Under the pieces are notes generated by a model. The model searched no databases. It saw nothing but the letters and a program-made list of their open reading frames with translations, and was not told the origin of the DNA. This document shows positions 5,851 to 41,766 of a DNA stretch of 64,000 bases, piece after piece. The position numbers were made by a program, and so were the translations under genes. Location: positions 33,170,001 to 33,234,000 of the forward strand of contig OZ024741.1 of assembly GCA_964016885.1 (NCBI GenBank). The letters run 5' to 3'. Source of the stretch: Eledone cirrhosa. Lineage: Eukaryota. The number at the start of each line of letters is the position of its first letter. The stretch's first letter is position 1.

Positions 5851-5973
5851 ATATGTATATAATATATATATATATATATATATACGTTACGTTATTCCGG
5901 GTTGAATCGGAGGTAACCACAGTAAGTAAGGTACTCAATACATTGCAAAGTATAAAAGTGTTAATATAGATGA

Positions 5974-6027
5974 GATTCTACAGGACTAGACTAGAACTGT
6001 TTCATTCTTTAGAAATCATCAGGAATC
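5974..6027 (-). ncRNA. Type I hammerhead ribozyme (GUA site)
   Basis: Minus strand: gauuc-CUGAUGA-uuucuaaagaau-GAAACAG-loop-CUGUA-gaauc. Stem I 5 bp, stem III 4 bp, short stem II. Confidence 0.75.
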
Positions 6028-6029
6028 AG

Positions 6030-6078
6030 AATTCCTGATGATTTCTAAAGAATGAAACAGTTCTAGTCCTGTATAATC
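6030..6078 (+). ncRNA. Hammerhead motif, inverted partner copy (stem I weakened)
   Basis: aattc-CTGATGA-tttctaaagaat-GAAACAG-ttctagtc-CTGTA-taatc. The first stem I pair is C·U. Confidence 0.5.
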
Positions 6079-6162
6079 TCATCTATATTAAAACTTATAT
6101 ATATATATATATATATATATATATATATATATATATATATATATATATATATATATATATAT

Positions 6163-6390
6163 TTATGTAATAAACAACATAAGATAATTATTTCATTTAC
6201 CGGTGGTTTCTTGAAAGCAACCAAAATTGCTTTCATTCATCAGAATGAAGTTTATTGACAGTAGATTTGACAAATCCACTGTCAATAAAGACACCAGAAT
6301 CTTTTGATTCTGATGAATGAAAGCAATTTTGGTTGATTTCAAGAAAACACTGGTAAATGAAATAATTATATTATGTTGTTTATTACATAA
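6163..6390. mobile_element. Second fold-back element with two hammerhead motifs and a central hairpin (family 2)
   Basis: 6163-6246 is the inverted copy of ~6307-6390. The spacer has its own hairpin tttattgacagt..actgtcaataaa (6251-6289). Confidence 0.7.
6192..6249 (-). ncRNA. Type I hammerhead ribozyme (GUA site)
   Basis: uucauu-CUGAUGA-a-ugaaagcaa-loop-uugcuuuca-a-GAAACC-acc-GGUA-aaugaa. Stem I 6 bp, stem II 9 bp, stem III 3 bp. A decayed partner lies at 6304-6362 (+). Confidence 0.8.
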
Positions 6391-6879
6391 CTAATAAGCT
6401 CTGTAACTTACATAGAGCACTCTTTTTTCCTGGACATTTCCGACGGAATTACTTCATTAACACACACACACACACACACACACACATATATATATATATA
6501 TATATATATATATATATATATATATATATATATATATATATATATATATAAGGTAACTCTCTCTCGTGTTGTTACTCTTTCCTTCATTCTTCTACACATC
6601 TCATATACACCACGCATCTCAACGTACACCCACTTACATCTCTCTCTCCACCACCGGATCTTGTTACCCGGAGATTTACCCATTTGCATTGTCGATGCTT
6701 CCAAACGACTTAAAGATATTTACTTATTATTCCACAATGCTTCAAGCAAAACTTCAATACTCTCTTATATATATATATATATATATATATATATATATAT
6801 ATATATATATATATATATATATATATATATATATATATATATATATGTATATATATATATATATTTATTTATTAAAATA

Positions 6880-39409: not shown

Positions 39410-39705
39410 CCACTTCTTCTTCTTCTTCTTCTTCTTCTTCTTCTTCTTCTTCTTCTTCTTCTTCTTCTTCTTCTTCTTCTTCTTGCCGTGGGAGAAGAGT
39501 CCTCAACCACTCCTTCCAGTGGGTCCTGCCAGAAGCAAGCCTCTCCAACTTATCCTGGTGGAACCCCAAACGTGACCAGTGGAGCTCATGGATGTTATCC
39601 AGCCATCTTGCTCGGAGTCTACCCCTGGGTCTCCTGCCAACTGGTTATTCCCATAAAATATGTCCAGTGATTCTTTCCTGGGACATTCTAACCCCATCCC
39701 CATAG
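39410..39705 (-). mobile_element. RTE 3' fragment ending in (GAA)n
   Basis: GRRPRGRLRARWLDNI..LASGRTHWKEWLRTLLPRQ followed by (GAA)n. Confidence 0.7.
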
Positions 39706-39912
39706 TATCGGAGCTAACACTAGTCTTAAAGCAAAAAGGGACACGCTAGATAATGTAGTCCTGGAAACACTGAATAAATTGTGATCTGGCTTGAACAGAC
39801 TTAAGACTATAGACTTAAGCCAAGAATTAAACATGATCGTAGAAAACTGGAAACTTCTTAAATACTTTAAAGATTTTCATTATGTGCTTTTAACATAGAC
39901 TAAAATTACTGG

Positions 39913-40403
39913 TGGATTGGCAGTATCGGTAGAGGGTCGGACGCCATGCTTTGACGCATGAAGTTACGGTCCTTGCCATTCTGAGTTCAAATCCCGCCAA
40001 GGTTAACTTTGCCTTTTATCCTTACGGGGTCAATAAAATAAACTACCAGTAATGTACTGGGTAATTGCTGGTCTTGTGCCAAAAGTAGAAACAATTATAA
40101 AGAAGAACCAAAGAAACAGGCATATCTTAACATATCATTTAAACATGTTAAGAAAAAGTATTTATTTCGCAGGCTCAGAAATACAACACAGAACAATGAC
40201 TTCTAGTATAGCCACAAGGCCAGTAATATGGGGGGAGAGGAAAGTCGATTAAATCGACCCCAGTACGTTACTAGTGCTTTATTTTATCGACCCTGTAAGG
40301 AGGAAAGGCAAAGTTAACCTCAGCGGGATTTGAACTCAGACCGTAAAGGCCCGTAACTCTATGCTGCAAAGCATGGTGTCCGACTCTCTATCGATACTGC
40401 CAG
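39913..40403. mobile_element. Two convergent copies of the major tRNA-SINE (39913-40097 +, ~40195-40403 -)
   Basis: A box tggcagtatcgg, B box gagttcaaatcc, and the shared body. Confidence 0.8.
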
Positions 40404-40445
40404 TATGATGCACATAAATGAATTAGAACTGTGAAAATAACAGAA

Positions 40446-40806
40446 TACTATTGTGTCCCAAATAATATGGGTGGGGGGTAACCGGGGGTTGGAATAAATG
40501 GTTGGCTGGAATATGCGGTAATTTTTCTACGTTTTTGTTTTAAAAACCAGAATTAGCTGTTTAGTTTACATATTGAGACCCTCAAACCATCGTATTTATT
40601 TTATAACCTATTAGATTTCTAATAATGTACTTTTTTGTGATGTATAATGTTTTTTAATATATAAAGAAAATTAATTGTCGCAGGAATGCCACCACTTAAA
40701 ATAAAACGTCGGCAGAGATAGATTAGAAAACTTTAATAAGCGGGGGTGTGGGGAAATTGGAAAAGTTAATAGGCGGAGTTGGGGCATTATTCGAGACCAG
40801 AGAGTA
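40446..40806. mobile_element. Candidate MITE with imperfect TIRs and TA ends
   Basis: tactattgtgtcccaaataat versus the reverse complement of the right end tactctctggtctcgaataat (15/21 match). Confidence 0.4.
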
Positions 40807-41584
40807 CCTCAATCATAATAAAACCAATGGAACATCATAATGGTAACCACAGATTGATAAGGAAAACAAAGAATTTAGGTGTGAAACTCCACCTAGTCAA
40901 TAAAGAGCAGGTGTTGGGTGAAATGGAGCTACGGGTAGGATTCGGTCAACGTCCGTAGTTTGCTGACCCTTGAAATGCATAGGTAAAAGTACAGGCAGAC
41001 AGACAGGTACACAGATAGACAGGTACACAGACAGACAGGTACACAGACAGTTTGTCTTCCTTAAATGACCGCCATACTTTTATATGTAAGTCGTAAATAA
41101 ATAGGTGAATGTTTTTGTACCTCCCTTTTCTTCCACTTCTTCTTCTTCTTCTTCTTCTTCTTCTTCTTCTTCTTCTTCTTCTTCTTCTTCTTCTTCTTCG
41201 GAAAGAAAGACATAGAAAAAGTTAAAGAAAACTCGTTTGATTGATCTACTCAGAAATAAACACAGCCTGCACACATCTAACAGCACCACACCCATGCACA
41301 TTGAAACACGCGTGCACATACATACAAACATACACACAAATACACACAAATAGACTTGCACTAACAAAATATGACATTACACCACTGATTCTCTCGTCAA
41401 TGAAAACGACAGCAGAACATCTTACTATATGTGTGTGTGTCTATATGTATATATATATATATATATATATATATATATATATATATATATATATATATAT
41501 ATATATATATATATATATATATATATATATATATATATATACAAGGTGCTGTTAGATGTGTGCAGGTTGTGTTTATTTAGGGGT

Positions 41585-41766
41585 GTAACCACAGTTGAAG
41601 AAGCTACTCAATACGTTGGTAAAATATAGGAATCTCTGTTATATATAGAAATGACTTCTACAAGAGTAGAACTGTTTCATTCGTATGAAATCACCAGGAA
41701 TGATGATTTCAACTAATGAAATAGTTCTAGTCCTGTAGAAGTCATTACTATATATAATAAAGATAT
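41585..41766. mobile_element. Diverged copy of fold-back hammerhead family 1
   Basis: Inverted arms with gaaa(c/t)agttcta..tgtagaag and cores CTGGTGA (-) and ATGATGA (+). Leader aaccacag..tactcaatac as at 5915-5941. Confidence 0.65.

Follow-up and report, generated by a model that had tools for sequence, protein, structure and literature searches.

Hammerhead motifs in a 64-kb stretch of the Eledone cirrhosa genome: probable ends of Penelope-like elements and the anatomy of their head-to-head insertions

A stretch of 64,000 nucleotides from the genome of Eledone cirrhosa (assembly GCA_964016885.1, contig OZ024741.1, positions 33,170,001–33,234,000; hereafter the window, in whose own coordinates all positions are given) carries numerous hammerhead ribozyme motifs, several of them in units that have no open reading frame (ORF). 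The question raised by this locus is whether such units form a set of non-autonomous ribozyme retroelements mobilised by the reverse transcriptase (RT) and GIY-YIG endonuclease of Penelope-like elements, as the initial annotation suggested, or belong to the Penelope-like elements themselves. Our analysis made it probable that most of the hammerheads are pseudo-long terminal repeat (pLTR) ends of autonomous Penelope-like elements, that the short head-to-head units are likely dead-end insertion products, and that one family, designated F, is a tandem repeat moved in trans. The motifs are real and of a known kind; what is added is a description of how the insertions are built, through which the Penelope mechanism can be tested.

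The window was searched with a type I descriptor comprising the CUGANGA and GAAA core, an NUH cleavage site, and three stems. Five complete minimal hammerheads were found, with cores at 6022 (−), 6243 (−), 22755 (+), 28051 (+), and 35737 (−) and predicted cleavage nucleotides at 5979, 6198, 22782, 28121, and 35708. These are exactly the five that had been annotated at 5974, 6192, 22751, 28045, and 35703. Among 300 block-wise dinucleotide shuffles, 294 contained no motif and six contained one (mean 0.02 per window). The decayed or partial sites annotated in addition were each homologous to intact members of genome-wide families. The number of families, previously put at six or more, was counted as eight, namely A (5974, 6030, and 41690), B (6192 and 6304), C (6900), D (21735), E (22751), F (28045 and 27546), G (29392), and H (35703). 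Half-hammerheads of a further family, J, at 92–152 and 9610–9745 were additional to the original list. An RF00163-type profile scan had been proposed as a check; the Rfam search of the window gave no match at the gathering score, and no hammerhead was among the best 150 of 188 rows at E ≤ 10, evidently because these minimal motifs lie outside the Rfam models.

The palindromic stem III expected of such motifs was present in E, F, and H (perfect self-duplexes of 4, 10, and 8 bp), partly in B (6 bp), and not in A; in the models, the self-duplexes of E, F, and H would suit dimers. The G10.1–C11.1 pair was present in E and J, and U-U, A-A, or C-A occupied this position in A, B, C, F, and H. A check of stem covariation was positive in F (four pairs changed on both sides) and gave one compensatory change in stem I of A, the other families being too uniform. 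In the 3.0 Gb assembly containing the window, exact motif matches numbered 8,393 for A, 12,089 for F, 5,852 for H, 30,649 for C, and 35,626 for J, and the reversed-motif controls of all five gave 0 matches each. First-look candidate counts were 1,677 for B, 2,787 for E, and 376 for D. Counts for A, F, H, C, and J together amount to a mean of about two per 64 kb; by this measure, the window is well stocked with hammerheads without being unusual. Many further hammerhead families were seen as bystanders in (TA)n tracts at the scanned loci, and the nine families studied therefore fall far short of the genome-wide set. The A motif occurred more often on the forward strand (5,374) than on the reverse (3,019), a possible sign that the assembly contains a large tandem array.

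The origin of the families was indicated by coding sequences joined to the same hammerheads and tails, often at other genomic loci (numbered with the prefix L). The tail of family A continues into a 5′ untranslated region (UTR) and a Hydra-type ORF at L246, and RT and GIY-YIG pieces were found at L245 and L246. The tail of B runs into the start of a Hydra-type ORF with RWK and DKT motifs at L229, of which the N-terminal part alone was seen. For family C, the window copy itself, a 5′-truncated Hydra-clade element (6876..8935, −), carries the 3′ 356 codons with the RT thumb, CxCx5C linker, and GIY-YIG (7868–8935, −) and a 3′ hammerhead (6889–6939, −) with the core AAGAAGA; the family form is CAGAAGA. 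A C tail at 8936..9010 (+) is the inverted second arm of the same insertion. Family H gave tblastn matches to the C protein at 16 of the 20 top loci, and its window copy, also a 5′-truncated Hydra-clade element (35671..36182, −), comprises a 3′ UTR and a GIY-YIG remnant directly upstream of the complete hammerhead (35703–35742, −; GUU at 35708). In family J, an ORF was found downstream of the tail at L419 and the endonuclease upstream at L413 and L414. The window copy of E (22657..22874, +) is a 5′-truncated 3′ end with a complete minimal hammerhead (22751–22786, +; GUU at 22782, loop-less stem III); an RT remnant (Pfam RVT_1, E = 9e-6, below the cut-off) and a GIY-YIG-like sequence were found upstream of family E hammerheads. 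The E protein had no blastp match to the Hydra proteins. By its motifs, we take its ORF to be Poseidon-like and E to be a Poseidon-like Penelope element. No ORF-bearing parent of D or G was found among the genomic loci examined. Their window copies have decayed hammerheads: that of D (21597..21847, +; core 21736) belongs to an old family with 73–94% identity to other copies, and that of G (29310..29512, +; core 29400) has lost the G of GAAA.

All ORFs seen for the parents were partial or broken, and Pfam gave at most a weak GIY-YIG match for the A/B/C/H/J-type parents (E = 0.022) and no match for the Penelope ORF of the window. The Hydra clade is defined by RWK/RWR, DKT, CxCx5C, CxxC, and CxH motifs (PMC8557442, section 11). 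All of these motifs were present in A and H. Family C showed the linker together with the endonuclease motifs, B showed RWK and DKT, and J showed RWR. Judged by these sequence motifs, A, B, C, H, and J are Hydra-clade Penelope-like elements; the Neptune clade, our first guess, was dropped because the Hydra motifs fitted. Since the hammerheads of A, B, C, E, and H join RT/GIY-YIG ORFs elsewhere, we regard them as pLTR ends of autonomous Penelope-like elements. Thus, the link to Penelope-type elements drawn in the initial annotation was borne out for these five families, whereas the lack of an ORF in the window was misleading as a sign of non-autonomy, because the same hammerhead and tail are fused to coding sequence at other loci. 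Of the proposed non-autonomous ribozyme set, D and G aside, F alone (27491–28302) was retained. Short ORF-less hammerhead units are therefore not by themselves proof of non-autonomous families.

Copies of A, B, C, H, and J were inserted in (TA)n, and an inverted 5′ copy and a one-sided tail were seen. In the window, a long A arm (5888..6027, −) with a complete hammerhead (5974–6027, GUA at 5979), a tail of about 65 nt, and a 5′ end at the start of stem I stands head-to-head with a short untailed arm (6031..6095, +), in which the first stem I pair is broken (site 6035). A short B arm (6160..6274, −) with a complete hammerhead (6192–6249, GUA at 6198) adjoins a long tailed B arm (6271..6465, +), the hammerhead of which (site 6310) is damaged in stems I and III. 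An older A-type head-to-head pair with both hammerheads decayed occupies 41580..41760 (no strand; motif region 41643–41753), and an A tail fragment without a hammerhead lies at 34844..34922 (+). Another family, with no visible hammerhead, forms a head-to-head pair at 34713–34812 and has relatives at L004 and L101.

The 30 best A copies were head-to-head pairs of about 208 bp that abutted TA repeats and had variable junctions. In both A and B, the junction differs between copies, which fits separate insertion products and not a replicating unit. Because the 30-best sample is query-selected, 85 A arms were also taken in genome order, among the first 100 exact matches. Here, 43 arms extended at least 30 nt upstream and 31 ended 0–2 nt before the pattern; the remainder ended at 3 nt (five arms, ambiguous overlap) or at 8–28 nt (six arms). 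The boundary lies 29–30 nt downstream of a TATAAATA box, a spacing kept in two diverged subfamilies. A splice acceptor was rejected as its cause, since a diverged subfamily keeps the TATA spacing without a pyrimidine tract. An inverted partner was detected at 50 of the 85 arms and belonged to the same family in all 50, and each of the 17 two-arm pairs combined one long and one short tail. Among 62 C arms, 36 extended and 20 ended within −8 to +4 relative to the start of stem I; one ended at +15, and five scored further 3′, two of these through alignment artefacts. An extra non-genomic G preceded 7 of the 10 A arms that start at the A; inspection by eye of the four C arms of this kind showed a G in three, at a position occupied by T in the genome. 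Arms ending no more than 1 nt from the cleavage site amounted to 1/101 in A, 0/70 in C, 0/25 in F1, and 1/46 in H, and there is no pile-up of arms at this site.

Two further readings were set aside. A fixed centre of the B pairs was partly due to query bias, the tail-based sample being spread out. Mixed-family head-to-head pairs were discarded as proof of trans action because they are rare (0/50 in the genome-order A sample and 2/28 in the tail sample). Such two-family junctions (A with C, A with J, and C with H) were observed at L032, L043, and L086, suggesting that two RNAs were used at one site. In addition, remnants of a helicase, which we take to be Helitron-like, lie between A copies at L244:2768–4441 (−). 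A transcript through an A pair was predicted to form a hairpin of about 70 bp (−100.7 kcal/mol) that buries the ribozyme; such RNA would be a likely substrate for editing or silencing.

Family J served as an independent test of the 5′ site, because its boundary is not at stem I. It is a U3-A8 hammerhead with a TATA-like box and an initiator-like motif inside stem II, the latter lying 29–30 nt after the former, within the stem II loop. Exact matches to its 3′ half numbered 35,626, against 20 to its 5′ half; almost every genomic copy has the 3′ half alone. The window contains an arm with the 3′ half-hammerhead only, starting at the initiator-like site (92..152, +), and a head-to-head pair (9610..9745, no strand), in which the left arm has the 3′ half of the U3-A8 hammerhead only and the right arm has a deletion. 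Of 45 bystander J arms, 40 start between −18 and +4 of the initiator-like TCAGT/TTAGT, and four extend at least 29 nt. In the 16 long J copies examined, 148–1,500 nt were shared upstream; each of the three main variants of short J was also present among long copies, and some short copies keep the initiator T's. Contigs of sequencing runs X22 and X23 (one sample, kind not recorded) have loose ends at the J pile-up base, and a depth step similar to that of J was also seen for A, depth not being copy number. If the J promoter is indeed inside stem II, only read-through RNA could form the whole ribozyme.

The most likely explanation of the short units is that they are run-off complementary DNAs (cDNAs), made by priming on both strands of the target and templated by capped mRNA that had not been cleaved. 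The Poseidon_Ac enzyme has two internal reverse transcription start sites bounding the tail, extends both strands, and uses an AT-rich target; it needs RNA downstream of the start sites, and insertion is unaffected by hammerhead mutants (PMC11167929). By the proposed mechanism, the enzyme would nick both strands of a (TA)n target and prime two cDNAs at two internal start sites, yielding one tailed and one untailed arm. With priming at the tail near the 5′ end of an uncleaved mRNA, synthesis would run off at the capped transcription start after 70–200 nt, sometimes with an additional base placed opposite the cap, and the ends of both cDNAs would be joined head-to-head. Priming at the 3′ copy would give long, randomly truncated arms. 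Short copies have neither an upstream promoter nor RNA downstream of the start sites and therefore would not move again. A bolder form of this proposal, to which we assign an even chance, is that Penelope-like enzymes make “strong-stop” insertions, i.e., twin-primed run-off copies of the first 70–200 nt of a capped mRNA. These would map promoters genome-wide and settle the use of a sense uncleaved template, and in this genome they would have deposited perfect hairpins in (TA)n by the tens of thousands, with the J promoter in stem II and with family C, carrying U4A, at 30,000 copies.

A number of observations weigh against this explanation. Monomer folding was better than in shuffles for two of eight motifs and no better for the other six, and the hammerhead fold lay 2.6–11.4 kcal/mol above the energy minimum. 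No comparably sharp single 5′ site was found in the B, H, and E arms. Family C has an initiator-like motif but no TATA box, and the TATA and initiator assignments in A, C, and J presume general consensus sequences. The J arms show no clear extra G, and in A the extra G could come from cDNA fold-back on stem I, for which three bases match in 3 of the 7 cases. Four of the 17 A pairs span 5–7 kb and may not be single events. The samples are also uneven: A and C arms were picked by patterns inside the hammerhead, so that ends further 3′ and at the cleavage site are under-sampled, and the cleavage-site samples were partly biased toward arms spanning it. The 35,626:20 ratio of J rests on exact patterns, and the depth of the J contigs, which is not copy number, falls only about 30-fold at the pile-up base.

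Among the alternatives, the one that survives best is compatible with the explanation preferred here, although we consider it rather doubtful: the motifs may be structural or protein-binding elements derived from ribozymes and no longer cleaving in most families. The core of C is CAGAAGA with all three stems intact, and this U4A change was present in 48 of the 53 scored arms (three arms reading CTGAAGA owe this to overlap at the junction); the section of PMC3088659 considered here lists no U4A variant. A loss of cleavage would also fit the mismatch at 10.1–11.1 in A, B, C, F, and H and the failure of 8 of 9 Xenopus retrozyme dimers to cleave in vitro (bioRxiv 10.64898/2026.07.22.740005). However, U-U at 10.1–11.1 is tolerated (PMC3088659), the hammerhead of the anole element cleaves with protein help (PMC11167929), and the core and stems have been retained, F and stem I of an A subfamily showing compensatory changes.

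It is considerably less probable that the short units of A, B, C, and J propagate themselves as mini-elements, similar to short interspersed nuclear elements (SINEs) or miniature inverted-repeat transposable elements, which have an internal promoter and are moved in trans, as the initial annotation implied. The very high numbers of short-copy motif matches (A 8,393, C 30,649, and J 35,626) speak for it, short J copies exceed long ones by orders of magnitude and in part retain the initiator T's, and in Adineta pLTRs suffice for trans mobilisation (PMC3846280). Nevertheless, the junctions vary from one short copy to another, the long copies already contain the three main short-J variants, and the short copies stop at the RT start sites, without the downstream RNA that the anole enzyme needs (PMC11167929). 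Least probable of all is a 5′ pile-up and inversion caused by RNA or cDNA structure, whereby the molecule would fold back or prime itself at stem I or at a palindrome, perhaps with an antisense template as PMC3846280 proposes: the A and C pile-up site does coincide with the stem I start, three A cases match three fold-back bases, and B junctions centre on the self-complementary TTTT(C/T)AAAA, but the J site is the stem II loop at the initiator, away from stem I, fold-back predicts A in C where G was seen in 3/4, simple fold-back gives arms with the same 3′ end whereas 17/17 pairs differ, and antisense self-priming predicts neither unequal tails nor initiator-aligned ends.

In the explanation by insertion products of autonomous elements, family F stands apart. 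Its unit is AT-rich and 520–571 bp long (16 distinct units), the longest ORF in four representative units has 27–77 codons, and the units gave no meaningful match to the Penelope proteins; a coding origin was looked for and none was found. In the window, an ORF-less tandem unit of 523 bp is present in 1.3 copies with a tail (27623..28302, +), including the complete hammerhead (28045–28127, +; GUU at 28121), and is accompanied by an inverted short arm (27491..27622, −) cut at the core and lacking the 5′ strand of stem I. One array, a 9-mer, is bordered by (TA)n on either side and includes an inverted 5′ piece. Among its eight full units, pairwise differences amount to 0–1 base, and one of them differs by 8–14 bases from nine units at other loci. 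In 18 distinct F hammerheads, 97.8% of the cells pair. The covariation score was 0.309 against 0.118 in shuffled alignments and was reached by 0/500 shuffles, a control that may be inflated by relatedness; slid structures pair at 28–50%. By its sequence organization, F fits a non-LTR retrozyme-like element with Penelope-type ends and is the one family fitting a non-autonomous ribozyme retroelement. It was likely moved in trans by Penelope-type enzymes, and its multimers would keep the needed downstream RNA in the next repeat. Against this counts that no autonomous partner of F was found among the genomic loci examined. Another tandem family, with conserved CUGANGA and Penelope-type ends, was seen at 35400–35540, L048 (651 bp period), and L230; it has no downstream GAAA, and its motif at 35512 was therefore not counted as a hammerhead.

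The window is packed with microsatellites and remnants of long interspersed nuclear elements (LINEs). An uninterrupted LINE frame of 1,052 codons with endonuclease and RT domains, which we take to be RTE-like, lies at 2554–5712 (−). Broken LINE copies, presumably Tx1/L1-like and R4/Dong-like, occur at 9800–21300, 32700–33700, and 23100–26400. A 17 kb array of short tandem repeats at 42870–60000 (+) has long open frames in which Thr (TTTIKTTTSN) or Pro (TQPPLLRPLPV) abounds and is possibly a mucin-like exon. A minisatellite with a period of about 32 bp was found at 36939–37585, and many copies of one SINE-like family at 33907–34096, 39912–40402, and 60326–63274.

The role of the hammerhead and the origin of the head-to-head repeats are open questions for Penelope elements (PMC8557442; PMC3846280; PMC11167929). 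Tens of thousands of young copies, the ends of which would predict transcript starts, a sense uncleaved template, and two priming events per insertion, bear on both, and with F they are joined by a large family that resembles retrozymes and has Penelope-type ends. Earlier publications already describe hammerheads in pLTRs, opposite-strand pairs, inverted copies, tails, Penelope-derived retrozymes, and TATA and initiator motifs in pLTRs. In the literature searched, which left aside most subscription papers, no report was found of start-aligned run-off copies, a U4A family, or a promoter inside stem II, nor, with bioRxiv supplements outside the search, of these cephalopod hammerheads. One supplement file of PMC4209133 has 0 mentions of octopus, and the available part of PMC13282606 mentions neither ribozyme nor hammerhead.

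Comparison with known systems demonstrated a close likeness to the minimal type I hammerheads of PMC4209133, which have short stems, a palindromic stem III, and thousands of dispersed single motifs, with opposite-strand pairs 100–700 bp apart and a known U3-A8 variant. Family E matches the consensus published there, with one extra base before G10.1–C11.1. Unlike in that set, a 10.1–11.1 mismatch was observed in A, B, C, F, and H, U4A in C, and a TATA-like box and initiator inside stem II in J. The non-LTR retrozymes (Cervera and de la Pena, 2020, PMC7229834; Li et al., 2026, bioRxiv 10.64898/2026.07.22.740005) resemble F in that their AT-rich repeats lack an ORF, run head-to-tail, and carry a single type I hammerhead in each unit, ranging in F from partial tandems to a 9-mer. 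However, F differs in its larger unit (520–571 bp), in a stem II with a long loop, in a palindromic stem III of 12 nt that has no loop, and in its Penelope-type ends, and the short A and B units differ from them in being head-to-head and in having ORF-bearing parents. The Poseidon_Ac element of Anolis (Frangieh et al., 2024; PMC11167929) has in common with the present families a tail that continues into the ORF region and an AT-rich target; the two internal start sites defining the tail, the priming of both strands, and the uncleaved RNA template would be shared under the mechanism proposed here. Start-aligned run-off copies are not described in the available part of that paper, and A, B, C, H, and J are of a different clade. 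The features described for the Hydra clade (PMC8557442) agree with our families in the RWK/RWR and DKT motifs, the CxCx5C linker, CxxC and CxH around the endonuclease end, (TA)n targets, hammerheads, the inverted 5′ copy, and the one-sided tail. A Hydra family with (TA)n targets, Hydra-1_Obim, is listed for Octopus bimaculoides (Craig et al., 2021; PMC8557442). As a difference from this clade, likened here by its described features, the young families in the E. cirrhosa genome number five or more and reach copy numbers from thousands to tens of thousands.

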